In this document: positions 465 through 56,075 of the stretch, one piece after another
Layout of the letters: each line of letters begins with the position of its first letter
Numbering within the stretch: position 1 is the first letter of the stretch
NCBI RefSeq assembly: GCF_004010195.1
Contig: NC_057755.1
Location: forward strand, 8,607,320-8,671,319
DNA: 64,000 nt
Direction of reading: 5' to 3'
Origin: Chiloscyllium plagiosum
Lineage: Eukaryota
Program-made: the position numbers and the translations under genes
Notes under the pieces: generated by a model
What the model was told of the DNA's origin: nothing
Databases searched by the model: none
Seen by the model: only the letters and a program-made list of their open reading frames with translations

Positions 465-572
465 TGTCGTGATTGGAACGAGGGCCAGGAGAATCTTAAT
501 GATGATGAGATCCCTGATCGGGGTTGTTATCCTGCACCAGTCAGAGATTCCTGCTTGACAGATATAAACAAC
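465..572 (+). mobile_element. 5' part of a Gypsy family-A LTR, interrupted at the TATA-like motif
   Basis: TG start, ccctgat-gggg-tgtta and gacagatataaaca motifs, shared with the LTR copies at 3332, 33272, 39306, 54718 and 59580. Confidence 0.65.
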
Positions 573-765
573 GGTCTCTTTCCCCCTCCAACTCTATTTT
601 GATTTAATCCCTGCCCTCCCCTTCACTGTTTGATCACGCAATATTGCCCTTTGAGGTGAAGGGCACTGCTTGTCACTGGCCACTCAGGTGTTTCCTTTCT
701 TCCTGGTGGTGGAAACAGAATAAAGAATCGTGCACCTTGTGTCTTTCACTGTGTCTCACACCTGT
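573..765 (+). mobile_element. Tx1-like (L1 clade) LINE 3' end inserted at the LTR target site
   Basis: Closely matches the 39418-41843 units (ccctccaactctattttgatt...aataaag...gtgtctcacacc). Starts right after gatataaaca. Confidence 0.75.
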
Positions 766-6585: not shown

Positions 6586-7513
6586 TGTAGCGATGGGAAC
6601 AAGGTGGACCTCACAGAATACGAGTTCCCTGTTTGGGGTTGCTATCCCCACTTAAGAGTGGTCCTAAATGAATCGCAGAACGTTGATTTGCAGGCGCAAC
6701 AGTTAATCAGGAATACAAATGGAATATTGGCTTTCATTGCTTGAAGAATTGCATTGAAGAGCAGGGAGTTCTGTAGCAATTGTATAAGGTGTTGGTGAGG
6801 CTACAACTGGAGCATTGTGCGCAGTTCTGGTCTCCTTACTTGAGGAAGGATGTATAAGCTTTGGAGGCAATGCAGACAATGTTTAACAGGTTGATTCCAG
6901 AAATAAGGGCGTTACCCTATAGAGGGGAGGTAGATGCACCTGGGACTGTACTCGCTAGAGTTTAGAAGAATCAGAGGGGGATCTTGTCGAATCATATAAA
7001 TCAATGAAAAGGATAGATAAGCTGCAGGCAGTCAAGCTGTTTTCACTGTTGTTAAGACTCGGACGAGGGGACATTGCCTCAAGATTCGGGGAATAGATTT
7101 AGGACAGAGATGAGAAGGAACTCCATTTCTCAAAGAGTCGTGAATTCTCTGTCCAAGACAGCAGTGGAGGCCGCTTCATTGAACATTTTAAGCTAGAGTT
7201 GAATGGGTTTTTGCATGGTAGGGGGATAAAGGATTATGAGTATAACATAGGTAGGCAGAGGTGAGATGAGGGATAGATCAGCCATAACCTTAATGAATGG
7301 TGGAGCAGGGCCGACAGGCCAAATTGCCTATTCCTCCATGTATTACTATGAAACTTGGTCTGATCAGGAAGCCTTGGCTGACAAATACAAACAAGTGGAT
7401 CAGGGATTCTGTTCACTTTGAGAGCTGACTCTGACGAAGCTGCAACAGTGCAATGTCCGTGTAACTAAAGGAGGACTTCCTATTGGGATAACGATCTCTG
7501 TGGAGTTATTTCA
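6586..7513 (+). mobile_element. Solo family-A LTR with 5-bp TSD ATCTT, containing a CR1 insertion; Tx1 target site empty
   Basis: TG...CA termini with atctt at 6581-6585 and 7514-7518. Flanks are paralogous to those of the 39306 LTR. Confidence 0.8.
6645..7350 (+). mobile_element. CR1 LINE 3' fragment
   Basis: GILAFIA, LYKVLVRLQLEHCAQFWSP and a CR1-type 3' UTR. Confidence 0.85.
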
Positions 7514-19784: not shown

Positions 19785-22516
19785 GTTAGATGGGTCGGTG
19801 TTTGTCCAATGTGTGCAGGAGGGTTTCCTGACACAATATGAAGACAGGCCAACAAGAGGTGAGGCCATACTGGATTTGGTTCTGGGTAACGAATCAGGCC
19901 AGGTGTTAGAATTGGAGGTAGGTGAGCACTTTGGGGACAGTGACCACAATTCAGTGACTTTTACTGTAGCGATGGAGAGGGATAAGTGTGCACTGCAGGG
20001 CAAGAGTTATAGCTGGGGGCAGGGAAATTATGATGCGGTGAGGCACGACTTAGGATGCGTGGCTTGGAAAAGTAAGCTTCAAGGGAAGGGCGCAATTGAT
20101 ATGTGGAGCTTGTTCAACGAGCAATTATTGAGTGTCCTTGATAAGTATGTATCTGTCAGGCAGGGAGGAAAGGGTCGTGTGAGGGAGCCGTGGTTTAATA
20201 AGGAATTGGAATCCCTTGTTAAATGGAAGAGGGCGGCCTATGTAAAGATGAGGCGTGAAGGTTCAATTGGGGCGATTGAGAGTTATAAGGTAGCCAGGAA
20301 GGACCTGAAGAGAGAGCTAAGAGCAGCAAGGAGGGGACATGAAAGGTCCTTAGTTGGTAGGATTAGGGAAAACCCTAAGGCTTTCTATAGGTATGTCAGG
20401 AATAAAAGAATGACTAGGGTAGGAATAGATCCAGTCAAGGATAGTAGTGGGAAGTTGCGTGTAGAGGCTGAAGAGATTGGGGAGACACTGAATGAATACC
20501 TTCCGTCAGTAATCACTCAGGAACAGGACATTGTTGCCGATGTGAACACTGAGTCACAATTAANNNNNNNNNNNNNNNNNNNNNNNNNNNNNNNNNNNNN
20601 NNNNNNNNNNNNNNNNNNNNNNNNNNNNNNNNNNNNNNNNNNNNNNNNNNNNNNNNNNNNNNNNNNNNNNNNNNNNNNNNNNNNNNNNNNNNNNNNNNNN
20701 NNNNNNNNNNNNNNNNNNNNNNNNNNNNNNNNNNNNNNNNNNNNNNNNNNNNNNNNNNNNNNNNNNNNNNNNNNNNNNNNNNNNNNNNNNNNNNNNNNNN
20801 NNNNNNNNNNNNNNNNNNNNNNNNNNNNNNNNNNNNNNNNNNNNNNNNNNNNNNNNNNNNNNNNNNNNNNNNNNNNNNNNNNNNNNNNNNNNNNNNNNNN
20901 NNNNNNNNNNNNNNNNNNNNNNNNNNNNNNNNNNNNNNNNNNNNNNNNNNNNNNNNNNNNNNNNGGTGAAAATAGATAAGTCTCCTGGGCCTGATGGCAT
21001 TTATCCTAGGATTCTCTGGGAAGCAAGGGAGGAGATTGCAGAGCCATTGGCCTTAATTTTTATGTGCTCGTTGTCTACAGGAGTAGTGCCAGAAGATTGG
21101 AGGCTCGCAAATGTGGTTCCCTTGTTCAAGAAGCTGAGTAGGGATAACCCTAGTAACTATCGGCCGGTGAGTCTCACTTCTGTTGTGGGCAAAGTCTTAG
21201 AGAGAATTGTAAGGGATAGGATTTATGAACATCTGGATAGGAATATTGTGATCAAGGATAGTCAGCATGGTTTTGTGAAGGGCAGGTCGTGCCTCACAAA
21301 CCTTATTGAATTCTTTGAGAAGGTGACTAAGGAGTGGACGAGGGTAAAGCGGTAGATGTGGTGTATTTGGATTTTAGTAAGGCGTTTGATAGGGTTCCCC
21401 ATGGTAGACTACTGCAAGAAATACGGAGGTATGGCATTGAGGGCGAGTTGGAGGTTTGGATTAGGAATTGGCTGGCTGGAAGAAGACAGAGGGTAGTAGT
21501 TGATGGTAAGAGTTCATGTTGGAGTGCAGTAACGAGCGGTGTTCCGCAAGGATCTGTTTTGGGACCTTTGCTGTTTGTCTTTTTATAAATGACCTGGAGG
21601 AGGGGCTAGAGGGTTGGGTGAGTAAGTTTGCGGATGATACGAAATTCGGTGGAGTTGTTGACAGTGAGGGGGGATGCGTCAGGTTACAGCGGGATATAGA
21701 TAAGCTGCAGAGCTGGGAAGAAAGGTGGCAAATGGAGTTCAATGTAGGTAAGATTAAAGTGATTCACTTTGGTAAGAGTAACAAGAAGATGGGGTACTGG
21801 GCTAATGGTCGGATACTTGGTAGTGTGGATGAGCAGAGGGATCTTGATGTCCATGTACACAGATCTCTGAAAGTTGCCACCCAGGTAAATAGTGCGGTGA
21901 AGAAAGCATTTGGCGTACTGGCTTTTATTGGTAGAGGAATTGAGTTCCGGATTCCTGAGGTCATGTTGCAGTTGTATAAGACTCTGGTGCGGCCGCATCT
22001 GGAGTATTGTGTGCAGTTTTGGTCGCCATACTATAGGAAGGATGTGGAGGCACTGGAACGGGTGCAGAGGAGGTTTACCAGGATGTTGCCTGGTATGGTA
22101 GGAAGATCGTATGAGGAAAGGCTGAGGCACTTGGGGTTGTTTTCATTGGAGAAAAGAAGGTTTAGGGGTGACTTGATAGAGGTGTACAAGATGATTAGGG
22201 GTTTAGATAGGGTTGACCATGAGAAACTTTTTCCACGTGTGGAGTCAGCTATTACGAGGGGGCATAGCTTTAAATTAAGGGAAGGTAGGTATAGGACGTA
22301 TGTTAGGGGTAAATTCTTTACTCAGCGAGTCGTGAGTTCATGGAATGCCCTGCCAGTAGCAGTGGTGGATTCTCCCTCTTTATGGGCATTTAAACGGGCA
22401 TTGGATAGGCATATGGAGGATAGTGGGCTAGTGTAGGTTAGGTGGGCTTGGATCGGCGCAACATCGAGGGCCAAAGGGCCTGTACTGCGCTGTATTTTTC
22501 TATGTTCTATGTTCTA
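19785..22516 (+). mobile_element. Young 5'-truncated CR1 (HER1-like) LINE ORF2 with two frameshifts, spanning an assembly gap
   Basis: PTRGEAILDLVL, KSPGPDGIYP, NYRPVSLTS, YLDFSKAFD, GVPQGSVLGP, FADD and a (TTCTATG)n tail. Confidence 0.95.
20564..20964. other. Assembly gap (401 N)
   Basis: Run of N. Confidence 1.
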
Positions 22517-31804: not shown

Positions 31805-33381
31805 ATAGGGAAAAGCCGAGGCAGAAATCGGAGGCTGGAAAGGGAAGGAATCATTAACCCAGGAGAGTCTGCAGAATCAACAGCACTGCACGTACTGATT
31901 GTTAAACCTAATTGGCCTTTTGCCATTTGAGGATTTTAAACAATCTGTACACCAATTCTCACAGCTAGATAAATATCTAATCCCTCATTATAGAGGACAG
32001 CATTTTATTATGGAGAACAAGAGGGATTGTTCCGAGTAAAGTAGTCTAACTGATATTGGTTGAATACCAGCAGGGTTATCCAGGGCTGTCCAAAATGAAG
32101 ATGTTGGAGTGAAGTTACGTCTGATGGCCAGGATTGGATGCCAACATGGCCACGTTGGTGGGACAGTGCTCAGTGCTCATATGGATAAACATTATTTGCA
32201 GCAGGCACCCCCAACCCCCACCCCACCCCCACACTCCTGCAAACGGCTGGGTAAACCCTGGATTAGTTTACACATGGACTATATCGGCCCTTTCATGAGC
32301 TTAATGTTCTTGGTTATTGTGGATGTCCATTGAAAGTGGTTGGACCTGCATTGAATTCATTTTGTAAACTACGTGATGATGATTTAGTGGCTGTGAACAT
32401 CATCCATGATATACTGACTCCTGGAAGTACTGGTCACAGACAAGAGCATGTCATTTTCCAGCAGTGTTTTCCAGTTTTTCCTGACCTCAAGTATCATTCG
32501 GCATGTTCAGACAGCTCCATGCTATCCACCATCGAATAGTCTGGTAAAAAGAGCAGTTCAAGCATTGAAGGCAGGTTTAAAGAAACAGCCAACAGCTTCA
32601 CTCGATACCAAACTGTCCCGGGTCCTGTTCGATTATAGGACCATCCCTCACAAAACAACAGAACTAGCTCCAACAGAGTTGTTAATGGGGAGAAGATGCT
32701 GCACCAAGGTTAAACCTGATATTCCCAGACCTGGGAGAGGGTGAAACAGCATCAGGAGCACCAATACCAGATAAATGTCTCCTCTAATCGAGAGAGACAG
32801 TTAACTTGAGGAAACGAAGGTCGGTGTCGAAACAACAGAAATGGCGATGCATGGGTAAAAGATAAGGCTATTGTGACGTTTGATTCCAAAACTTACATGG
32901 TTTCGTAAGTGAAGCGTCCCTGAACAAGAAGGTAGATCATATGAAAGCTGCTCCGTTGCACACTTGGCTGGAGCAATGCATACCTGGCTCCTCAGAACAG
33001 CCAGATAGTCTAACAGAAACCGTGGGCTCTTCCCTCTGCTTAGCGAAGAAGACACCTTCCAGTCTGAGATGGATGCAGCCTCGAAACCGTTACCAACAAA
33101 TAAGAAGAGGAAAGTCTCCCGTGACACTCTGGGGGCAAGAGACTGGTTACAGTCCAGTATACATCACCCCATGGCCGGTTCAGAGTCAGAGAAACAAGAC
33201 CTGGGGTAAAAGTATGCGAGGGAAGCTACAAGAGAATGAACAGGCGTGCATCCCTGACTTGGTCGGGGAGTAATGTCGTCATTGAAACAAGGGCCTGGTG
33301 GATCACTGACGATGTGAGCCTTGACTAGGGCTGTTAACCTGGTCTAATCAGGGAGCCCTGGCTGACAGAGTTAAACAGGAG
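31805..33381 (+). mobile_element. Gypsy family-A pol remnant plus 5' half of the 3' LTR (~33272-33381)
   Basis: KPWISLHMDYIGPFM, TAPCYPPSNSLVKRAVQ and LFDYRTIPHKTT integrase motifs; PPT ggggag. Confidence 0.85.
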
Positions 33382-33620
33382 CTGGTCTCTGCCGTGTGCC
33401 TGTCCCTCTTCTGCAGTGGGGTCCGAGGGTGGGTGTCCTCGGAGAGGGAGCATGGAGTGTCTCGATGCATTTAGGGAGAATTGTTCCTGTGAGGGAGAGA
33501 GTGCTTGGTTCCCCCTCCAACCCCATCTTCATTTCATCTTTCTTATTCACTTCCCTTTCATCGTTGGCCTTGCTTGTTATTGAAGTCTTGTCCACATAGA
33601 TGCTTTTCCTGGTGGTTGAA
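33382..33620 (+). mobile_element. Diverged Tx1-like LINE 3' end at the LTR target site
   Basis: VRGWVSSEREHGVS and PSNPIFI are homologous to VRARVSLEKEHAVS and PSNSILI. Begins directly after taaacaggag. Confidence 0.7.
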
Positions 33621-34294
33621 TCATAGAATGACCAACCATACCCTTAAAGAGGAAATTCCAGAATATTAACCGAGTGTCAGTGAAGCAACAGGTATATATT
33701 TCCCAGTCGAGATGATGAGTGATTTGGAGGGGAACGTGTGGGGAGTGGTGTTCCCATGTATCTGTACCTTTGACTGGAGGGAAGTGGTCAAGTCTTGGAG
33801 GGTACTGCCTCAGGATCTTTGGTGAATTTCTGCAGTGCATCTTGTAACTGGTACACACTGCAGTTATTGAGTGTTAGCGGTGAATGGGCGGGACGTTTGT
33901 GAATGCAGATATAATCAAGTGGATTGCTTTGTCCTGGATGGAATAAATAATTTTCTTTATAATTAGCATCATTGCTCAGTATTCCTTTCAAAGTGAATGT
34001 TGGTGCTGAGTCTCAAAGTCCAGGGAGCAGCTTAGACATTTTGAGGCAAGTGACCATACATTTTGTATTGTAATTAACTGTACAGGAAAAAAGTAACACC
34101 AAGAGTCACAATTTTAGGAACTGAAATCTAAACTTGTATTTTATAACAGCTTAAACAAAACAAAATGCATGGTGCACCCAAAGAAGGAGGTTCAGGAATG
34201 ATGACAATGTGATTGTTTCAATGATGGGTAGTGCGATGCAACAATGAGAACAACTGAACAAGTTGATTTTTGGAGGCATAGGCAGAGTCTGAAA

Positions 34295-38490: not shown

Positions 38491-39262
38491 TGAAGACATG
38501 TACTGTACCTTAAAGATAGAGGGAATGCTGAACTGAACTGAGAGATTACAAGCAACTGTATGTAAGTTCAGATGGCAGTGTCAGAGTGCCCTAGAAAATT
38601 GAAAATTTGTAACATTTGGCTGTAAAATGAATCCTGAGTTTTGGTTCATGTTTTCAGAGCAAATCAAATTTAACCAAAGGCTAATTTAACGTTTTAAGTT
38701 ATGCCCCCGCATACTAAAATTCAATTGAGTTTACATTTATTGTTTTGCCAACATTGAACCAATGAGACCATCCAATGTTGGCATGATGTAAAAATGCAGA
38801 CATGTTGAAAATTGTTCAGAGATCAACTGCCACACAGAGAAACTACTGGAGAGCGAATTTCCCATCTAACATCTTGTTCTCCAAAGAAATAGAAAACACA
38901 CTCTTTCAATGGTACGTTTTCACGTGAAACATACTCGCAGTAAAAAGAAAGAAGAAGACCTGGAGAGAACATCAGCTGGAAGAGTGAAGACACAGAAGAG
39001 GACAAAGATCGTGTGGTTTTGAAATTAAATTGATGTACCTTTAATGAGTGTCTTTTTGGAACAGCGTATTGTCATAGAGTTTTTATAAAAGCATATTTTT
39101 GTAGAGTAAGATGTTCAGAGAAAAGAGGGCTTAGATTTGTGAAACGTTTACTGAATTTTGGGAGTTCTCTGTCACCCATATTTTAACATATTGCCAGGCA
39201 AGTCAAGCTGTTCTGTATGATTCGTTGAATTACCAGTGGGTTTCAATCTTTGTGTCATAACA
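38491..39262. mobile_element. Probable solo LTR of a third family
   Basis: TG...ATAACA termini and no ORF. Absent from the paralogous position at ~6560. Confidence 0.55.
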
Positions 39263-39417
39263 CATTCCAATTCTTAATCAACTGCAAGCCACTTTATACC
39301 ATCTTAATAGCGATGGGAACACGGTGAGCCAGGGACATCTCACAGAATATGAGTTTCCTGATTGGAGCTATTGACGTGGTCCAATCAGTGACCCCGGCTG
39401 ACTGATATAAACAGGAG

Positions 39418-41843
39418 ACACGTTAGAGCCCGGGTGTCCTTGGAGAAGGAGCACGCGGTGTCCACCAACACCCTGGAGTTGTTCAGGGAGAGGTGGGCGC
39501 CGCAGGGAGTGGAGTGCATCATTTCTCCCTCCAATTCTATTTTGATTTAGTCCCTACCCTCCCCTTCACTGTTTTGATCACACAGCACTGCCCTTTGATG
39601 TGAAGGGCAGTGCTTGTCACTGGCCACCCGGGTGTTTTCCTATCTTCCTGGTGGTGGAATTTGAATAAAGATTCGTGCACTTTGTGTCTTTCACTGTGTC
39701 TCGCACCTGCGCACACACACACCAAAAAAAAAATACAGGAGATACGTTAGAGCCCGGGTGTCCTTGGAGAAGGAGCACGCGGTGTCGACCAACACCCTGG
39801 AGTTGTTCAGGCAGAGGTGGGCGCTGCAGGGAGTGGAGTGCATCACTTCTCCCTCCAACTCTATTTTGATTTAGTCCCTCCCCTCCCCTTCACTGTTTTG
39901 ATCACACAGCACTGCCCTTTGATGTGAAGGGCAGTGCTTGTCACTGGCCACCCGGGTGTTTTCCTATCTTCCTGGTGGTGGAATTTGAATAAAGATTTGT
40001 GCACTTTGTGTCTTTCACTGTGTCTCACACCTGCTCACACACACACACCATGGATGCTGGGGAAAAAAAAATAAGCACTACCGCACTTAGAAAGAAAAAA
40101 AAATAAAAAATAAATTAATAAACAGGAGATTTGGTTACGTTAGGGCCCTGGTGTCCTTGGAGAAGGAGCACGCGGTGTCCACCAACACCCTGGAGTTTTC
40201 AGGGAGAGGTGGGCGCCGCAGGGAGTGGAGTGCATCATTTCTCCCTCCAACTCTATTTTGATTTAGTCCCTACCCTCCCCCTCACTGTTTTGATCACACA
40301 GCACTGCCCTTTGATGTGAAGGGCAGTGTTTGTCACTGGCCACCCGGGTGTTTTCCTTTCTTCCTGACAAAAAAAAAGATAAACAGGAGATTTGGTTACG
40401 TTAGGGTCCGGGTGTCCTTGGAGAAGGAGCACGCGGTATCCACCAACATCCTGGAGTTGTTCAGGGAGAGGTGGGCGCCGCAGGGAGTGGAGTGCATCAT
40501 TTCCCCGTCCAACTCTATTTTGATTTAGTCTCTACCCTCCCTTTCACTGTTTTGATCACACAGCAATGCCCTTGGATGAGAAGGGCAGTGTTTGTCACTG
40601 GCCACCCAGGTGTTTTCCTATCTTCCTGGTAGTGGAAATTGAATAAAAAATTCGTGAACTTTGTGTCTTTCACTGTGTTTCACACGAAAAAAAAAGAAAA
40701 AAAATTTAAAAAAATATTTTAAAAATAAACAGGAGATTTGGTTACGTTAGGGCCCGGGTGTCCTTGGAGAAGGTGCACGCGGTGTCCACCAACACCCTGG
40801 AGTTGTTCAGGGAGAGGTTAGCGCTGCAGGGAGTGGAGTGCATCATTTCTCCCTCCAACTCTATTTTGATTTAGTCCCTCCCCTCCCCTTCACTGTTTTG
40901 ATCACACAGCACTGCCCTTTGATGAAAAAAGAAAATAAAAAATAAACAGGAGACTTGGTTACGTTAGGGCCCAGGTGTCCTTGGAGAAGGAGCACGCGGC
41001 GTCCACCAACACCCTGGAGTTGTTCAGGGAGAGGTGGGCCCTGCAGGGAGTGGAGTGCATTATTTCTCCCTCCAGCTCTATTTTGATTTAGTCCCTACCC
41101 TCCCCTTCACTGTTTTGATCACACTTTGATGTGAAGGGCAGTGCTTGTCACTGGCCACCCGGGTGTTTTCCTATCTTCCTGGTGGTGGAATTTGAATAAA
41201 GATTCGTGCCCTTTGTGTCTTTCACTGTGTCTCACACGTATACACACACACCATGGGTGCTGGGGATAAAATAAGCACTACCGCACTTAGGTGGTAGTGT
41301 GGGGTATAATTAAAAAAATAAAAAAATAAACAGGAGATTTAAACCTCCTCCTCTGCTAATAGAAGAAAAAATAAACAGGAGATTTGGTTACGTTAGGACC
41401 CTGGTGTCCTTGGAGAAGGAGCACGCGGTGTCCACCAACACCCTGGAGTTGTTCAGGGAGAGGTGGGTACCGCAGGGAATGGAGTGCATTATTTCTCCCT
41501 TCAACTCTATTTTGATTTAGTCCCTACACTCCCCTTCACTGTTTTGATCACACAGCACTGCCCTTTGATGTGAAGGGCAGTGCTTGTCACTGGCCACCCG
41601 GGTGTTTTCCTATCTTCCTGGTGGTGAAAATTGAATAAAGATTCGTGCACTTTGTGTCTCTCACTGTGTCTCACCCCTACACACATACACCATGAGTGCT
41701 GGGGAAAAAAATAAGCACTACCGCAATTAGGTGGTAGTGTGGGGGTAATAAAAAAAAGAAAAAAACGAAAAAAGAAAAAGAAAAGAAATAGACAGGAGAT
41801 CCCCCTCCAACTCTATTTTAAAAAAAAAACAAATAAACAGGAG
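39418..41843 (+). mobile_element. Tandem array of seven Tx1-like LINE 3'-end copies plus two micro-inserts, each ending in A-tail + ATAAACAGGAG
   Basis: Units start at 39418, 39742, 40129, 40390, 40736, 40953, (41337), 41382 and (41799). They encode VR(A/V)RVSLEKEHAVSTN(T/I)LELFRERWAPQGVECIISPSNSILI*, which resembles a Tx1 ORF2 C-terminus. Confidence 0.8.
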
Positions 41844-44800
41844 ATTCAGAGTCTCCTCAGTTTCGGAGACTGACTCTGTGCTGTTTGGTGCTACAGTTAG
41901 TTTCTGCTTCCCTTCTTTTCTGGAAGGGGGAAACCTGACTTCTGAACTAGCAGAATTATTTAGCCAGTTTGTTAACTGGCATTCCTTTTAGTGAGGACTG
42001 ATTGTGAAACTCCTAGTGCACATAATGTGTTTCAGGTGGAACTCAGTTCTCATTAGGGGGTTGTTGTCTCACTGGCTGGTTACAGTCTGTGTGTTACTCT
42101 TTTTACTATTTACTTTTTGAGAAAAGGACAATGTGGATTTTATGGTGGGGAGTAGCCCTTGGACTCAAGTTTTCTTTGTTTTTTGTATGTATCCTCACTG
42201 TTTTTGGTGTTTGGACCGAGCCTTCGTGGAAGACATACATTTTACCAGAGGAGCTGTTCCTGTGGGGAGGCCTAGCCCTGGGACTGGGCCACTGAAGATT
42301 GAACACCTGTGTGTGTGCTGGGATGTGAGCAGTTGCTGTATCTTGGAGTCTGGCAGCAGAACTTTCCTTCAGGAGTGGACCATACCCCTGTGAGTTAACT
42401 GAACCTGGACTATGTTCCTGTGAGTGGGCCTGGTTTTCCAAGGCTGGGCCAGGACTCCATGGAGACTGAACACTTGTATGTTGTGCATTTGCTGCCTTCA
42501 GGATTGGACTCTGCCCTTGGTTGCGGACTTTGATTTTACCAACGGACTCTGCAGTTTGGAGCGGACTCTATTTCCAACAATGTACATCGTATACTGGAGT
42601 GGACTCTTCCTAGAAATTGATTCTATATTTTGAAGACTGTATAGATTTGGACTGTGTACCAGAAAGGACTCTGGTTTTTATTTTTTGGTAATTAACTGTA
42701 TTGTCGTGTTTCCTGGGTCTATCACCTGCACTGTCTAGTGTGTCCCTGGGTCTGGCAGGCCTTACTGTGAACTGGGAGGCTCATGGGTCGTCATGAAAGC
42801 TGTCACCCCGAGAGCCGGAGGGCGGGTAGGCCATCCTGTGAACGTGAAGGTTGGTAGGCTCTCTCGAAAGCCGGAGGGTAGGTAGGCTTCCCTGATGCCA
42901 GTCACCCTGAGAGCCAGAGGGTGGGTAGGCCGTTCTGAGCGCTGTTGTCCCGAGAAGGGGTAATCGGGACGGGCTGCTGTAGAGGTGGTCGAAAGGTGTC
43001 AGAGCAGCCGAGCTAGAAGGGGCGTAGGGGCGGGCTGAGATCCGGAAGGCTTGTGGGCTACCCTGCACGCTGTCGTCCCAGGGAGGGGGACGGGCTGTCC
43101 TAGAGGTGGTCGAAAGGTGTGCCAGGATAGCCCACTGGCCGGATGGCACATCGGGATGAGTGAGAGCCCAATGGTAACGTAGGTGCAGGCCGAGAGCCAG
43201 AAGGTGGGTAGCCGTTCTCAGCGCTGTCACCCCGGGCAGGTACTGGGGCGGGCTGTCCTACAGGTGGTCGAAAGGTGCTGAGGGTGGTTAGTGAAGCCGG
43301 AAGGTGGGTAGGCCGTCCTGACCGCTGTCACCCCGGGAGGGTACCAGGGCGGGCTGTCCTAGAGGTGGTCGAAAGGTGTGTCAGGTTCGACCGAGGTCTG
43401 GAAGGGGCATGGGGTGGACCGAGAGCTGGAAGGTGTGTAGGGACGGGCTGCAGTTGAGTGGTCGGAAGGTGGGAGGGACAGAGGCTTGCTGGGTCTGTAT
43501 TGTATGCATCTTTTTATGTAACTGGATTGTCCTTTTATGTACAAATGTCATTGTCACTGTCTTTTATATGTGGAACTGGGATTTGAGGTTTGTCCACATC
43601 TCCCTGAAAACTGGTTGAACGGTAGGGTTTGGGGCCTAGATTTGCTGCTCCTCTCCCTTGTAAAATTGCTGTTGTATACAGCTGTGAATGTTAACTGTTT
43701 TTTATAAACTGTTTTGTAACTGTTTAATAAAATAAAGAAATAAACTGGAACAAAAATTAACAGGAGTTTCAGAGGTCTTCTCAGTTTATGGGGCTGACTC
43801 TATGCTGGCTGGTGTTACAGTCAGTGTGTTACTGTTGGTTTCTGCTTCTTTTTTTGGAGGGGGAAACCTGATTCCTGAACTAGCAGAATTATTTAGCCAG
43901 TTTGTTGACTGGTATTTCTGTTAGTGAGGACTGATTATTAAACTCCTGATGCACATAATGTGTTTCAGGTGTAACTCAGTTCTCATTAGGGGGTTGTTGT
44001 TTCACTGGCTGGTTACAGCCTGTGTGTTACTCTTTTCTCTTCTACTTTTTGAGGAAAGGGCAATGTTAATTTTGTGGTAGGGCTTAGCCTTGGACTCTAG
44101 TTTCCTTTTTTTTGTATGTATCCTGACGGTTTTTGGTGTTTGGACTGAGCCCTTGTGGAAGACATATTTTACCAGATGAGCTGTTCCTGTGGGGAGGCCG
44201 AGTCCTGGGACTGGGCCTCTGAAGATTGAACACCTGTGTGTGTGCTGGGAGGTGAGCAGTTGTTGTATCCAGGAGTTTTGGAGAAGACCTTTCGTTCAGT
44301 AGTGGACCAAACCCCTGTGAGTTAACTGCACCTGTACTATGTACTGTGTTCCTGTGAGTGGGCTTGGCTCTCCAAGGCTGGACCAGGACTCCATCGAGAC
44401 TGAACACCTGTGTTATGTGGGGTGTGCATTTGCTGTCTCCAGGAGTGGACTCTGCCTTTGGTTGCGGACTGTTTTTAGCAACGGACTCTGCAGTTTGGAG
44501 CGGATTCTAATTCTGACATTGCACATTGTATACTGGAGTGGGCTCCTCCTGGAAATGGATTCCATATCTTGAAGACTGTATCGATTTGGACTGTGTACCA
44601 GAAAGGACTGTTTTTTTGGTAGCTAACTGTATTGTGGTGTTTCCTGTGTCTATCACCCGCACTGTCTTGCGTGTCCCTGTGTCTGGCAGGCCTTGCTGTG
44701 AGCTGGGAGACTCATGGTTCGTTCTGAAAGCTGTCACCCCGAGAGCCGGAGGGTGGGTAGGCCATCCTGTGAACCTAAAGGTTGGTAGGCTGTCCTGAAA

Positions 44801-46462
44801 GCCGGAGGGTGGGTAGGCCACCCTGATGCCAGTCGCCCCGAAAGCCAGATGGTGGGTAGGCCGTTCTGAGCACTCTCATCCCGAGAAGGGGTAATCGGGA
44901 CGGTCGGTCCTAGAGGTGGTCGAAAGGTGGGAGGGGCAGGGGCTTGCTGGGTCTGTATTGTCTGCACTTTTGTATGTACCAGTATTGTCTCATGTACAAA
45001 TGTCATTTTCACTGTCTTATCGTATGTCGAACTGGGATTTGAGGTTTGTCCTCATCTCCCTGTAAAATGGTTGAACGTTAGGTTTTGGGGCCTGGCTTTG
45101 CTGCTCCTCTCCCTTGTAAAATTGCTGTCTCATGTGTACAGCTGTAAATGTATTTTGGAAACTGTTTTGTAATTTGTTTAATAAAATAAAAAAAGTAAAA
45201 AGGAGATTCAGAGTCTCCTCAGTTTAGGAGACTGACTCTGTGCTGGCTGGTGCTGCAGTCAGTGTGGTACTGTTAGTTTCTGCTTCCCTTCTTTTCTGGA
45301 AGGGGGAAACTGATTTCTGAACTGGCTGAATTATTTAGCCAGTTTGTGAATTGGCATTCCTGTCAGTGAGGACTGATTGTTAAACCCCCGATACACATAA
45401 TGTGCTTCAGGTGTAACTCAGTTCTCATTAGGGGGTTGCTGTTTCACTGGCTGGATACAGCTTGTGTGTTACTCTTTTCTCTTTCTGAAAAAAGGACAAT
45501 GTTTATTTTGTGGTAGGGCATAGCCCTTGGACTGTAGTTTTCTTTGTTTTTTGTATGTGTCTTCACTTTTTATTGGTGTTTTGACTGAGCCCTGTGGAAA
45601 GCATACATTTTACCAGAGGAGCTGTTCCTGTGGGGAGGCCTAGTCCTGTGTGTGTGCTGGGAGGTGAGTACTTACTGTATCCTGGAGTTTGGGAGAAGAC
45701 CTTGCCTTCAGGAGTGGACCAAAACCCCTGTGAGTTAACTGCACCTGAACAATGTACTATGTTCCTGTGAGTGGGCCTGGTTTTTCAAGGATGGGCCAGG
45801 ACTCCATGGAGACTGAACACCTGTGTGCTGTGGGGTGTGCATTTGCTGCCTTCAGGAGTGGACTCTGCAGTTTGGAGTGGACTCCATTTTGGATAATGCA
45901 CCACAAAAACTGGAGTAGACCGTTTTTGTGAGAATGGACTCTACATTTCGAAGTCTCTACATCTGGACTCTGCGGACCAGCAAGGACTCTGTGTTTTTTT
46001 GTTAATTAACTGTGTATTGTGGTGTTTGTTGGGTCTATCACCTGCACTGTCTTGCGTGTCCCTGGGTCTGGCAGGCCTTACTGTATTGTATGCACTTTTT
46101 TATGTAACTGGATTGTCCTTTTACGTACAAATGTCATTGTCACTGTCTTTTATATGTGAAAGTGGGATTTGAGGTTTCTCCTCATCACCTTGTAAACTGG
46201 TTGAACGGTAAGGTTTGGGGCCTGGCTTTGCTGCTCCTCTCCCTTGTTAAATTGCTGTTTTGTGCGGCTGTAAATGTTAACTGTTTTTTATAAACTGTTT
46301 TATAATTTGTTTAATAAAATTTAAAAAAAAACACGTGTTTCAGAAGTCTTCTCAGTTTAGGGGACTGACTATGTGCTGGCTGAGCACAGTGTGTTGCTAT
46401 TGTAGTTGGTTTCGGCTCCATTTTTTGGTGGTGGGGAAACCTGTTAAAAATAATAAACAGGA
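41844..46462 (+). mobile_element. Four tandem copies of a non-coding, A-tailed element with an LTR-derived 5' leader (element B)
   Basis: Units 41844-43766, 43767-45205, 45206-46337 and 46338-46462. The first three end in aataaa + A-rich tail + degenerate acaggag. They carry a variable internal GC-rich repeat. Confidence 0.75.
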
Positions 46463-46634
46463 AGCTGAGGATTTCAGTCCACGCTGAGAGCTGGCTCCAA
46501 GGAAACCGAACCATGCGATGTCTGATGCATGCGTAAATAAAGGGTGAATTACTGATGGGTCCATGATCCAAGTACTGGCGTTCTTTAAACTGTTTCCTGG
46601 TGTGAAACATCTTATTTTTACGTTGCTTTTCAAT

Positions 46635-47545
46635 CATAGAGTCATACCACAGAGTAACAGAAATCTCAGGCCAAATTGGCCATGCCAACTGGGTTTCCCA
46701 AATTAAGGTAGTCCTATTTTCAGGCGAATTACCAGTTTCCCTCTGAACCTTTCCTGTCCATGTACCCGCGTAAATGTCTTTTAAATATTTGAACTGTTCC
46801 TGCATCCACCACTTTCTCTGGCTATTCATTCCACATATGAACCACCCTCTATATGGTAAACCTGCCCCGCAGTTCTCTTTTAAATCTTTCTCCTTTCTCT
46901 TTAAAATGATGGGCTCCTGTTTTGAGTGCCCCTCCCCCCAACACCTAAGAGAAAATACCTTTATTATTCGCCTTACCCTTTGTATTTAGGATTTTCTAAC
47001 CTCTATAATGTTACCCCTCAGTCTCTTATGCTGGAGAAAAAATAGCCCCAGACTATTCTGCCTATCCTTATGACTCATACTCTCCAGACCTACAACATAC
47101 TGTTAATTTTCAACTGAAACCAAAGTAATACTATTCCTTGGATCGCAGATGACCAGGACTGTACACAGTATTCCAAAACTGGACTCACCCAACGTCCCGT
47201 ACAACCACAATATGACATCCAAATACTTGTACACTGTGATATGAGCTATGAAAGATTCCAAACGCCTTCTTTACTAGCCTGCATACTTGCGACATAGCAT
47301 GAAAACAACTATGTAACTGAACCTTGAGATCTCTCTGTTTGACAGCACTACCCAGTGTCCTTCCATGAACTACAAAAGCCCTTCCCTTCTTCATCTTACA
47401 AAAATGCAACACCTGGCAGTGATCTAAATTAATTTCCATCCGTCGCTCCTCAGCCAAGTGACCCAATTTATCACGATCCCTTTCCAATCTTAGATAACAC
47501 TCACAGTCTGCTATACAACCAATGCTGGTGCCATCTGCAAACTTC
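46635..47545 (-). mobile_element. CR1 LINE remnant
   Basis: RRMEINLDHCQVLHF and KQRDLKVQLH peptides plus 3' UTR. Confidence 0.85.
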
Positions 47546-52004: not shown

Positions 52005-54815
52005 AGTAGTGTATTGATTGAGTTTGCTGATTGGTGCTGTTAACCTGATCCAATCCCTGATTGACAGATACAATTAAGAGTGTCAGAGGATCTGTTCACT
52101 CTGAGAGCTAGTTCTGAGGAAATTCCACCAGTGTCAAGTACTTTACAAACTAAAGTAAAAGTGACTTGATTACGGGATACCGACGTAGGTGGAAGTATTT
52201 CATTGAGATTCGTGATGTATTCATGCAAAAGCATCTACTCGCTGAAATACAACTGGACTTCAACCAGGTATTTCAAATGTGGTAAGTGGAACATGCCAGT
52301 GGACAGTCTTCCCAGACCAACTGGGCTTTTGGCAAAACCCCTTGAGTGAACGCAATTGCATCTCCTCAGGACATATCGTGAGCAGATGGACACCAGGTCA
52401 GCTCACACCAAAACCCCAAAACAAAGCCAAAACTTAGCCAAATCATGAACACTTCGGCAGACCAGGGGTGAGGTTGAAATAACATCAGGAGCGCGAAGAT
52501 CAGGCACATGCTTCCTCTTAGCGAGAGAGACAGTTTACTTCAGGGGGTGAAAATCGCTTTCGAACCGAATGGCCCTGTATGGGTACAAGGTGAGATCGAT
52601 GCGAGGTCAGGTCCCCTGACTTGGAAAATGTGGCTCAGTGAGGTGGTCCTGAACAAGCATGCAGATCATGTTTGCTCCCTTGTAGGAGCAAAACGTACCT
52701 GTTCCCTTTAAAACAGCCAGTAACGCTTTCAGAAACAGTGGGTTTCCCCCGCTGTCTAGCGTTGAATGAACCTGTGAATCTGAGATGGATGCAACTTCGA
52801 TAGCATTACTGCCTGAAGAAGAGGAGTAAATTCTAACGTGACACTCTGGTGGCAAGAGACTGGTTACGTTCCCATGCATTTCGCCTGTGTCTGAGTCATA
52901 GTGGGAAGAAACAGACGTGGGATGAAAAAGGACCAGTACCAATTCAAACTAATGACCCAGCCAGACAAACGGAGACTTTGGCAAGGACTGAATGACATCA
53001 CAGGTTCTAAAAAGAGACAGTGCAAGATAACAGATGCTGGCAAATCCTTCCCAGATCGTCTCAACGGCTTCGAGGCTCGCTTTGAGCAGACTTTTGGCAG
53101 AGAGGTAACATCTATTCCGACAATGCCTGACCAACAGTCATGGCATGCGAGGTCAGATTAGTTTTCCCTCATGTGAATCCAAGGAAAGCAATGGGACCAG
53201 TTGGAGTACCAGACCGTGAACTCAGAGTATGCACAGATCAACTGGCCGAAGTATTCTCGGACATCTTCAAACTTTCCCTGCAACAGATCACTGTCCCTGC
53301 CTGTTTCAAGAGGGCCAACCTCATTCTTGTGCCTAAGAGGGCTCATGCAGCATGTCTCAATGACTAGCGCCCAGTGGTCCTAACGTCGGTGGTCATGAAG
53401 TGCTTGAAAAAGCTGGTAATGGCATTAATCAGCTCCAGCATCCCCACTACTCTTGACCCACTCCAGTTTGCATGTCAGACCAAAAGATCCACGTCAGTTG
53501 CCATATAACTTGCCGTTCAATCCTCCTTAGAACATCTTGACACCAAGAACAGCTCCGTAAGAATCCTACTCATTGACTACACTATTATCCCATGATTAAA
53601 AAAGTAGTGATCTCGGACTAAGCCCAATCACTGCAACTGGATCCTCAGTTTCCTGACCCATAGGCTACAATCAGTGAAGACTGGGGACAATATTTCACCC
53701 TCACAAAAACTCAAGACTGGAGCCCCCCAGGGGTACGTACTCAGCCCCCTACTGTACTCATTGTAAACCCATGACTGCGTCGCCAAATACCAGACTAATG
53801 CCATTTACGAGTTTGTTGATGACATCAGCATAGTCGATCGAATCTCAGTTGGTGTCAAAACAGACTACAGACGGGAGGAAGAAGACTTGGAAAAATGGTG
53901 CACTGAGAACAACTAAGCTCTCAACACCAGCAAATCAAAGGAACCCATTATTGACTTTTGGCGGTGTGTTATTCATACCCCGCTACACATTAACAGCACT
54001 GAGTTGGAACAAGTGGTGAGTGTCAAGCTCCTGGGAGTGGTCATCAACAACAAGATTTCTTGGACTCTTTATGTGACGCATGAGTTACAAAGGCTCAACA
54101 ACATCTCTTCTTCCATCAGGCATCTGAGGAATTTTGGCATGACGGTGAATAGCCTTGTCAACTTTTATGGGTGCGCTTTCGAGAGCATTCTGTCTGGATG
54201 TATCACTACTTGAGATGGCAATTATACCATTCAAGATCAGAAACGGTTGCAGAGAGTGATCAACGCAAACGCGGAAAATCACACACGTCAACCTCCCATC
54301 TACAGGTTCCATCGATAGGCCCGCAGTCAAGTAAAGGCTGCCAGCATTCTCACAGATCCAGTCCACTTGCCAATACTTTCCCACAACCTCCACCGTCTGG
54401 GAGAAGGTACACAACACTGAACACACGCACCAGCTGGTTTGTAAGAGTTTCTATCCTACTGTTGTTGGAATACTGAATGGACTCACAAGCTCTTAACATT
54501 CGCATATCTGTGTTTTTGTTTTTGCCGCTGTTGACTCGTTATTTAATTAACTATGCTTTTAACTATGCGATCTGCCTATTGCTCGCAAGACAAAGCATTT
54601 CATTGTGCCTTGTCACACGTGACAATAAATTCAATTGAACGCAATTCAGTTCAAAAAGTTGAAGTAGAAGGTACAAGAGAAAGAGCAGGTGCACATCCCA
54701 GGACTTGGTGGGGGAGTAGTTTTATCACTGGAACGAGGGCCAGGTTTGATCACACTGACGATCAGATCCTTGACTGGGAATGTAAACCTGGGCCAACCAC
54801 AGAGTTAAACAGGAG
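52005..54815 (+). mobile_element. Internally deleted Gypsy family-A element (5' LTR ~52005-52202, 3' LTR half ~54718-54815)
   Basis: Paralog of 12716-24955, in the same position upstream of exon 1. PPT ggtgggggag precedes the 3' LTR. Confidence 0.7.
52920..54652 (+). mobile_element. Rex1/Babar-clade LINE, degenerate
   Basis: RKAMGPVGVP, CLND*RPVVLTSVVMKC, LDPLQFA, GAPQGYVLSPLLYSL, ESILSGCIT and a gacaataaa-ttcaa tail. Confidence 0.85.
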
Positions 54816-55092
54816 ATGGTCTCTGCTGAGTGCCTGTCCATCTTGTGCAATGATGTTCGAGGCCGAGTGTCCTTGGAGAGGGGACATGTGGTGTCTACCA
54901 ATACTCTTGATGCCTTTAGGAGAGTTTGTCACAATGGGGAATAGAGTGTTTTATTTCCCCTTCCAAATCCATTTTCATTTCTTCCTTGCCCTTCCCTTCC
55001 CTTTCACTTTATTTTCTCACGCACACCTTACCCCTTTTGGGCTTTGCTTGTTAATGACTACCTGGCTACATGGGTGTTTTTCCTGCTGGTAG
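54816..55092 (+). mobile_element. Diverged Tx1-like 3' end at the LTR target site (duplicate of the 33382 insertion)
   Basis: VRGRVSLER...STNTLDAFR peptide with the same 5' junction (tggtctctgc) as 33382. Confidence 0.7.
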
Positions 55093-56075
55093 AATTATAG
55101 CATAGATTTCTTTTGCAATGATGTGGGTTTTTTTCTGAGTCTATACATACTTACACAGCCAGAGGGACACGGGTGATGTGGGAGAAATATAAGCGATACT
55201 GCTGTGCAGTGGGCATGTCGGGGATCAATAAAATAGAAAGGGAAATAAAGAAAACAAAAGGGTCTTCTCACTGTAAGCACAGGCTTTGAGCTGGTTGGTT
55301 GAAGCCCATGGACTGTGTTCTTGTAAATAACAGATAACATGGTGAATGGATACCGTTCTCTGTTAAGTGATTTCAGTTGTAAATGAATGCATTCATTTGC
55401 TATGAATGAGAAGTTATTGCAACTCTGAACCGGCATAAGAAAAACAGTAATTTGTGTGTTGGAACATTATGTCTGTCGGGTGCCACAGGAGAGGGACCAA
55501 AATGCACAACTGTTTTTATTCGGTAACATGAGCACAAATTACCGGGTCAAGTTCCTTGCTTTGTGCAATGACGCAGGCATTGAGGCTGTGCTAGCATTGA
55601 TAGCCTGCCCCTTGAAGGTGGAGCAGCGCTGCTTCCTGTCAATAGCTGGTAGGCTGACCCACGTGCTCTGAGGGAGGGAATTCAAGGAGTCTGACAGAGT
55701 GATAGTGAAGGAACAGCAATATACCTCAAACTCGAAATGGCGAGTGACTTGGCGGGGAACGCATAGGGTATGGTGTTGTCATGTATCTCTGCCCTTGTCT
55801 GGATGGAGGTTATCACGTATTGGAAGGTCCTGTCTCAGGATCTGTGGTGAATTCCTGCAGTGCGTCTTGTAGCTGGTACACAATGATGATATTGAGTATT
55901 GGTGGTTGAAGGGCTGGATGATTGTGGATATTGATACAATCAAGCATATCGCTTTGTCCTTGGAGAGTGTCAAGACGTTTCTTTATAATTGGTGTCAGTG
56001 CTTAGTTTCTCTTTCACAGTGAATATTCGTGCTGACTCTCAATGTTCGGGGAACTGCTCAAATATGTCGATGCAT

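Follow-up and report, generated by a model that had tools for sequence, protein, structure and literature searches.

The locus described here raises the question of how one short long terminal repeat (LTR) in the genome of the shark Chiloscyllium plagiosum came to hold thirteen A-tailed inserts, stacked head to tail and each trailed by a copy, exact or degenerate, of the same 11-nt motif, ATAAACAGGAG. It occupies positions 39306-46560 of a 64,000-nt stretch (contig NC_057755.1, positions 8,607,320 to 8,671,319, forward strand), which is called the window below and from the first letter of which positions are counted. The stack was very probably built by repeated target-primed reverse transcription, carried out by a long interspersed nuclear element (LINE) of the Tx1 clade at a preferred motif, with each target-site duplication recreating the site. 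To judge from its insertion sites, this LINE would strongly prefer the sequence around (AT)AAACAGGAG, which in a short and probably Gypsy-like LTR family follows the TATA box at a distance of 5 nt.

Direct reading of 38800-47200 showed a single short LTR interrupted 5 nt past its TATA box. The gap contains 13 units, namely seven 3' ends of the LINE (A1-A7), two micro-inserts and four copies of another element, B, all on the + strand and all finishing in an A-rich tail (Table 1). An earlier, sequence-only reading of this DNA had described the split LTR with 7 + 2 + 4 A-tailed units, and the same layout was obtained on re-reading and by aligning the units. The first motif copy (39407-39417) is the end of the LTR 5' part itself, which is 81-86% identical to many dispersed copies running uninterrupted past the motif. 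The exact 11-mer occurs ten times in the window; eight occurrences are unit boundaries of the array and two (3435 and 59677) lie in two other LTR copies. Copies with one or two mismatches mark five more boundaries (39731, 41788, 43756, 45195 and 46453) and the motif between B3 and B4 is too degenerate for detection; 13 of the 14 boundaries carry a recognisable copy, in agreement with the earlier claim that every unit brings an A-rich tail and a new, sometimes degenerate, motif. When up to two mismatches are allowed, the window holds 41 copies vs 23.4 expected, a number that none of 100 shuffles reached.

A feature overlooked by the earlier reading is that the A units have their 5' junction in common while their 3' ends differ, which is the opposite of ordinary LINE truncation. 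Five of them begin with GGAG-ATTTGGTTACG (one with one change) and two with GGAGA[C/T]-ACGTTAGAG. Most inner motif copies are followed by ATT, the first three letters of B, and the string of micro-insert 2 is the start of three units in an array on another contig.

The site is used far beyond this array. In the window the LTR family has about nine to ten copies, all on the + strand (at ~470, 3334, 6586, 12705, 24865, 33280, 39306, 52000, 54716 and 59602), and the site is occupied in four of about nine, the array and the copies at 470-577, 33280-33381 and 54716-55365; these three occupied copies had likewise escaped the earlier reading. Among 32 other LTR copies, found by the LTR 5' half alone, seven carry LINE pieces with varied 5' ends, one carries B, two carry other inserts and 22 are uninterrupted; the inserts in the sampled copies all begin 0-21 nt past the motif. 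The site is occupied in about a quarter to two fifths of LTR copies, and the 8/32 copies with a Tx1 or B insert bear out the proposal that a Tx1 family targets the TATA-proximal region of the LTR. The tabulation of flanks which the sequence-only reading had suggested was carried out genome-wide. The canonical 3'-end word of the LINE, GGTAGTGTGGGGGT, was found exactly 5,438 times (control 220), and AAACAGGAG followed within 4-34 nt in 814 of these 5,438 cases (control 0). With TGTCAG appended, the motif has 915 occurrences in its native TATA setting and 667 after a run of A; left edges of some occupied copies are counted among the former, and single arrays contribute several of the latter. The motif was likewise found ahead of 20/20 sampled B heads, of which seven stand directly after an LTR 5' half and 13 after a tail and motif (among the 20, two heads on separate small contigs seem to represent a single locus), and the exact 8-mer ACAGGAGA stands in front of 25 of the 63 exact B heads in the genome. 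A 9-mer with at most one mismatch was present within 80 nt downstream of 32/69 A pieces in fetched loci and of 5/14 in a second sample, compared with 2.7% of random 80-nt windows, and many of the A pieces with no match show decayed versions; the flank share exceeds the 20% criterion for target-specific insertion used by Kojima 2015 (PMC4494074). Finally, of the first 100 listed LINE 3' ends, 59 fall into 21 clusters (neighbours within 2 kb), each on a single strand (chance of such a neighbour, 0.3%), and stacking is the rule for these LINE 3' ends.

Table 1. The array at 39306-46560 and the other occupied LTR copies of the window. Positions within A units (ref) are counted on a 379-nt reference, which is unit A7, and the layout was obtained by aligning the units.
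Feature	Positions	Part	Strand	Description	Rare variants
LTR 5' part	39306..39417		+	inverted CCAAT, CCAAT, then TATA box; ends gaTATAAACAGGAG	
A1	39418..39741	body + tail 39418-39730	+	LINE 3' end, ref 9-311; A tail; degenerate motif AAATACAGGAG	0.3%
A2	39742..40128	body + tail 39742-40117	+	LINE 3' end, ref 8-349; A-rich tail; exact motif	1.8%
A3	40129..40389	body + tail 40129-40378	+	LINE 3' end, ref 1-239, 3'-truncated; A tail; exact motif	1.3%
A4	40390..40735	body + tail 40390-40724	+	LINE 3' end, ref 1-293, ending ~35 nt past internal AATAAA; A-rich tail; exact motif	4.8%
A5	40736..40952	body + tail 40736-40941	+	LINE 3' end, ref 1-189, ending in 3'-UTR hairpin loop; A-rich tail; exact motif	2.7%
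A6	40953..41336	body + tail 40953-41325	+	LINE 3' end, ref 3-376, canonical end; A tail; exact motif	2.8%
Micro-insert 1	41337..41381	body + tail 41337-41370	+	~27 nt of no assigned origin and A tail; exact motif	
A7	41382..41798	body + tail 41382-41787	+	LINE 3' end, ref 1-379, canonical end; long A-rich tail; motif ATAGACAGGAG	3.5%
Micro-insert 2	41799..41843	body + tail 41799-41832	+	~19 nt of A (ref ~112-131) and A tail; exact motif	
B1	41844..43766	body + tail 41844-43755	+	non-coding element B, 1.9 kb, with internal G+C-rich repeats; AATAAA and A-rich end; motif ATTAACAGGAG	
B2	43767..45205	body + tail 43767-45194	+	B with internal deletion, ~86% identical to B1; A tail; motif GTAAAAAGGAG	
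B3	45206..46325	end approximate	+	B with larger internal deletion, ~85% identical to B1; A tail; very degenerate motif	
B4	46326..46463	body + tail c.46326-46452	+	first ~110 nt of B only; short A-rich tail; motif ATAAACAGGAA	
LTR 3' part	46464..46560		+	predicted start-site region, AATAAA, repeat end; assigned by comparison with uninterrupted copies	
Occupied LTR copy	470..765	LTR 470-577	+	LINE 3'-end piece (~111-297) a few nt past the motif	
Occupied LTR copy, 5' half	33280..33640	insert 33382-33640	+	3' end of an older, diverged Tx1-like LINE directly after TTAAACAGGAG	
Occupied LTR copy	54716..55365	insert 54816-55255	+	single old insert of the same diverged Tx1-like 3' end as at 33280, A-rich tail, decayed motif, LTR remainder	

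In the diverged Tx1-like 3' ends at 33280 and 54716 the frame still aligns with the C-terminus of the second open reading frame (ORF2) of the LINE. As a separate observation, these two copies belong to one LTR subfamily and have a near-identical 5' junction of the old insert, so that either the pair was copied along with the LTR or the junction was again guided. Two loci elsewhere show other forms of insertion at the motif. At G000:C4:14399258-14399402 five copies of tail, motif and TGTCAG follow one another with ~30 bp spacing, making an array of micro-units only, and L059 (G000:C6:72151320-72154426) has a ~210-bp insert with no poly(A), situated 3 nt past the motif and flanked by a 16-nt duplication that includes the motif.

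The A units are the last ~375 nt of a longer element. Their first ~130 nt still encode the C-terminus of ORF2, in many loci the similarity runs upstream into an open frame, and long copies exist. A reverse transcriptase (RT) domain (PF00078, E 4.5e-33) was found in 948 aa of the LINE copy L074, and in copy L075 an endonuclease domain of the apurinic/apyrimidinic (APE) type (Exo_endo_phos, PF03372; 45.9 bits, cut-off 24.5) stands ahead of the RT. The best named relative of the ORF2 is Xenopus YTX2_XENLA, the Transposon TX1 149 kDa protein (51% identity over 948 aa, 100% query coverage, E 2.7e-292), the other named protein matches are also entitled 'transposon TX1' or 'YTX2', and in tblastn residues 35-1171 of the 1308 of Tx1 ORF2 aligned in one frame at 47.7%, with endonuclease and RT both in order. 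The label 'Tx1-type' given previously is upheld by both domains and by the identity to the Xenopus protein; as far as sequence likeness goes, the LINE belongs to the Tx1 clade, a placement made from best named matches and domains. Its 3' untranslated region (UTR) contains a 13-bp hairpin (window 41553-41585, A ~172-204; -23 kcal/mol, z -3.1), the loop of which is the end of A5 (ref 189) and the start point of units in L024 (two) and L009, as if the RNA had been cut in the hairpin loop. At the other end of the element, a long LINE copy situated at the right end of an LTR array (L078+L074, G000:C6:52796600-52809400) has its 5' UTR joined, with no intervening tail, to an A piece that stops near position 232; two more loci (L015, L020) show this fusion as well, so that part of the LINE's 3' end seems to be duplicated at its 5' end. 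The idea that the head of the 5' UTR is derived from the LTR was rejected (alignment score 21 vs 16 +/- 2.3 for shuffles, maximum 27; not significant).

Uninterrupted copies of the target LTR are ~240 bp long, start with TG, end with CA and contain, in this order, CCAAT, TATAAACAGGAG, a predicted start site and AATAAA; from spacing, the start site is predicted ~18 nt past the motif. A 5-bp duplication flanking the LTR was seen by eye in two of ~10 copies (L036, L053). None of the 17 uninterrupted copies examined elsewhere has a flank in common with the others, and as their flanks are unrelated they are regarded as solo LTRs. Three LTR copies of the window have ~0.9 kb of pol-like upstream sequence in common. 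Upstream of the copy at 3334 a degenerate pol gives a match to RT_RNaseH_2 (PF17919, 32.6 bits, cut-off 29.8, at 1172-1483), and integrase-like frames were recognised there by eye; Pfam gave zero matches for the integrase-like frames upstream of LTR copies, and no LTR element with two LTRs was found. The earlier name 'Gypsy' is supported in part by the decayed pol with its RNase H match upstream of one LTR copy; that the target is the LTR of a Gypsy-like element is plausible, not proven. The copy at 6586-7513 had been noted as having a diverged motif and no A-tailed insert, and it reads the same way now. An Rfam scan of 38-48 kb returned only one sub-threshold chance match. It may also be recorded that the density of the LTR in the 64-kb window is far above what genome-wide word counts suggest.

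The proposed course of one insertion is as follows. The APE-type endonuclease would nick the bottom strand where it faces the A-rich beginning of the motif, the T-rich end thus set free would prime reverse transcription on an RNA's poly(A) tail, and the top strand would be cut in a staggered manner 11 to ~30 nt downstream. The resulting target-site duplication would contain the motif, and because of this the site would be renewed after each insertion, doubled and open to the next one, from which a head-to-tail stack is expected. The main templates would be the LINE's own RNA; element B, LTR transcripts, mRNA ends and bare poly(A) would be used in trans. Second-strand synthesis would start by annealing of the upstream end (the motif and a few nt of the resident neighbour) to the cDNA, and for this reason a new insert would adopt the 5' junction of its right-hand neighbour, and RNAs which contain the motif would be joined exactly at it. 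Inheritance of the junction with no common variants in the body would be explained by the same annealing, with an overlap shorter than ~17 nt, since A6 is without the A7 variant at position 17. The ATT after inner motifs fits a leftward carry from B by successive duplications of at least 14 nt.

Products of several of these steps were observed at other loci. Three ectopic sites have duplications of 11-15 nt (L007, with a motif-like 14-mer, L013 and L008), and a duplication of up to ~28 nt is found in the LTR at L045. Poly(A)-only insertion is present in L034, RNA of another LTR subfamily forms units joined exactly at the motif in L045 and L049, and mRNA-like ends were captured in L082 and L091. 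At the non-LTR sites L008 and L013 whole composite pieces (A, tail, motif, fragment, tail) carry their own 11-15 nt duplications, which indicates that array transcripts themselves have been retro-copied.

Several points weigh against this account. Recognition of a specific sequence by the endonuclease would follow from the insertion sites only, and the array is known from the genome assembly sequence alone. Many LTR copies with an exact motif are empty (e.g. 3435, 59677). The loci with A pieces (32/69) were picked by likeness to the full 379-nt unit, the genome search scores the best candidates only, and counts of exact words miss decayed copies. Moreover, five of the seven A units, and B4 too, have an A tail although their 3' end is truncated, which is not predicted by simple copying of full LINE RNA; the truncated A ends at 293-311 follow an internal AATAAA and, together with the end and start points in the hairpin loop, suggest, as a conjecture, cleaved and re-adenylated RNA. 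A6 bears the junction of A7 despite the micro-insert now standing between them. The duplications start at ATAAAC.. or AAAC.. and end 0 to at least 21 nt past GGAG, and with such variation of both start and end the cuts must be imprecise. A generic L1-like taste for A-rich DNA, existing tails included, could add to the stacking.

If that taste is made the whole explanation, no sequence-specific enzyme is needed: an L1-like endonuclease (TTT/A sites) would have struck the A-rich TATA region once and the poly(A) tails would have drawn the later insertions. Insertion of L1 and Alu into the tails of older elements is known, the array tails are long and A-rich, the duplication starts vary between ATAAAC and AAAC, and some LINE copies do occupy motif-less sites (L012, L017, L072, L077). 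This explanation is nevertheless improbable. First strikes need no tail, yet 8/32 LTR copies were struck within a 21-nt window, and a second, diverged Tx1-like family is found at the same site. The motif, not merely A's, trails each unit, which points to a cut at the motif and not at random in a tail. LINE tails have an exact motif behind them in 814 cases vs 0 in the control. Two ectopic targets are motif-like themselves (L007, TAAACAGCAG; the E75 junction, AAACTGGAG), and relatives of the same clade are known to be target-specific (PMC4494074).

A second alternative is growth of the array by local DNA events, unequal crossing-over or replication slippage, from one or two insertions. The tandem appearance speaks for it: Tandem Repeats Finder (TRF) detects repeats of period 324, 262 and 217 at 94-96% matches, and the 5' junctions are common within the array and unique to it, the 22-nt junction word with at most one mismatch having 5 occurrences in 3.56 Gb, all of them here, so that the A-unit junction is local to the array. 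Other arrays have their own shared junctions in the same way (L009, L014, L019, L057, E74), and L057 contains a clear higher-order duplication, from which it follows that some arrays also grow by DNA duplication. The bodies of the units tell otherwise. The 3' end and the tail differ from unit to unit. The mean distance among the seven A units is 0.039-0.072 vs 0.034-0.071 to copies elsewhere, and 7/7 have their nearest neighbour in another locus. In 17 of the 21 pairs no rare variant is common to both units (background mean 0.19), and adjacent pairs have 0-1 in common despite 14 own variants in A4 and 13 in A7. Divergence among the B units is as large as their divergence from B copies elsewhere. 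Rare-variant densities between 0.3 and 4.8% show that the A units arrived at different times, their ages differing more than tenfold. The window units are independent retro-copies of different ages and not local DNA duplicates; local tandem duplication, which had been named beforehand as one finding that would overturn the reading of the locus, is already largely refuted for this array and is very improbable as its origin. Another idea was that array transcripts had been copied to give the units, or that a neighbour had been duplicated as part of a long target duplication. For A3/A4 this was rejected (no common rare variant despite the 14 in A4), and the LTR-RNA units from another LTR subfamily in L045 and L049 contradict it as well; A1/A2 and A5/A6 may possibly include early long-duplication copies.

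The age of the A units rises from left to right in the window (rank correlation ~0.75 on 7 units). The same order is found in E74 and L022 and not in L009, L014, L019 and L057, and loci picked by likeness to the full A7 unit are biased towards a young central copy; this weak polarity is a further point against the proposed insertion course. The comparison with a repeat-spacer record made in the sequence-only reading amounts to a likeness, and an ordered acquisition is not the general case.

It is scarcely credible that the LTR element picked up the inserts while it was itself being reverse-transcribed, through template switches at strand transfer, and that they were passed on with the LTR. The site does lie near the U3/R border of the LTR, and the copies at 33280 and 54716, with the same old insert and the same junction, may have been copied in this way. 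The window junction, however, is confined to this array within the genome, no other match to the LTR 5' half exceeds 85-86% identity, the units are of different ages, and the inserts are overwhelmingly 3' ends of one LINE family, identical types of which are met at non-LTR sites with LINE-type duplications. An assembly artefact, in which reads from many dispersed copies were stacked wrongly, might be feared in a region built of high-copy repeats but deserves hardly any belief, as the units are 4-15% apart with unique tails and ends that assemblers resolve easily and similar arrays exist at many loci.

Among the non-LINE units, element B deserves a separate description. It is non-coding, 1.9 kb long in B1, and its copies B1-B2-B3 are 84-86% alike. 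Because they are only this much alike, the same as to B copies elsewhere, the B units are taken as the oldest layer of the array. The earlier reading called B unrelated, which is not quite so: B positions 2-15 are identical (14 nt) to the sequence past the motif in another LTR copy of the window, at 3446. The alignment of the B head with the L041 LTR was not significant. G+C-rich degenerate tandem repeats with periods of ~28, 43 and 101 occupy window 42760-43480 and 44690-44930; their copy number makes up much of the length difference between B1 and B2, and B3 is without that region.

A further idea, possible but on the whole unlikely, is that of promoter parasitism. By landing 5 nt behind the LTR TATA box, the LINE and B might be placed under an RNA polymerase II promoter, and arrays might then act as self-feeding RNA sources and, incidentally, as a dated archive of germ-line poly(A) RNAs, cleaved and re-adenylated fragments included. 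Re-copying of array transcripts, which this idea contains, is shown by the composite array RNAs with their own duplications in L008 and L013.

Comparable systems are known. L1-type trans-mobilisation copies poly(A) RNAs that do not stem from the LINE, giving processed pseudogenes as well as SINEs (short interspersed nuclear elements); B, LTR RNA and mRNA-like ends are copied here in the same manner, with the difference that the trans products land at the LINE's specific site. The closest named protein (51% over 948 aa) is that of Xenopus Tx1L, which inserts in Tx1D and is the type element of the Tx1 clade. Both elements combine an APE endonuclease with RT, end in poly(A) and insert at a single site within another repeat family (PMC4494074); the target of Tx1L is a piggyBac-type element, whereas that of the shark LINE is the promoter region of an LTR. 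In the same paper (Kojima 2015) Tx1 families are reported that favour LTR retrotransposons, and tandem copies with a target-site duplication between them are explained by sequential insertion. The sequence-only reading knew of no description of this target, a view that has to be corrected since the target class is published (PMC4494074); a Tx1 family at an LTR TATA box was not described in the literature searched. The crocodilian families Tx1-Mar/SINEU-3, Tx1-8_Crp and Tx1-4_AMi also prefer a site in another transposon, and Tx1-Mar/SINEU-3 has a non-autonomous partner with a common target and tandem SINEU-3 copies; the 13-unit stack, the TATA-proximal site and the capture of other RNAs seen here are not mentioned in the accessible portion of that source (PMC4494074).

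Another parallel is offered by the R1 arrays of Drosophila 28S genes. According to Stage and Eickbush 2009 (PMC2718515), a 14-bp target duplication stands between neighbouring R1 copies at the normal site, new copies enter the duplication at the 5' end of the resident copy, and junction precision is set by annealing of cDNA to target-derived sequence. R1 differs in belonging to another clade and in having a host-gene target; at the highest levels an inserted unit holds an average of two to three R1 elements, and heterogeneous captured RNAs, as in the shark array, are not described for R1 in the sections consulted. Insertion-site preference is also considered the main source of head-to-tail tandems of transposable elements by McGurk and Barbash 2018 (PMC5932611); theirs is a Drosophila population survey of mostly dimers, and its available part does not describe a stack of regenerated motifs in an LTR. 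The proposed mechanism is already known from other site-specific elements, and what is notable here is the unusually long and mixed stack, the promoter-proximal target, the high occupancy and the mechanistic detail that has been preserved.

With this locus the list of Tx1 targets is extended by a motif that closely follows an LTR family's TATA box. Arrays of this kind expose details of target-primed reverse transcription which are usually hidden, such as variable top-strand cuts, inheritance of the neighbour's junction, poly(A)-only events and the capture of 3'-truncated, putatively re-adenylated RNA. In genome annotation, composite arrays should not be named as new repeat families or satellites, and a LINE endonuclease with a putative defined preference of 9-11 nt is a candidate for site-directed insertion tools. 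The window also contains, at ~20560-22433, an open RT frame of a different LINE (YLDFSKAFD ... FADDTK type), which is unrelated to the array.

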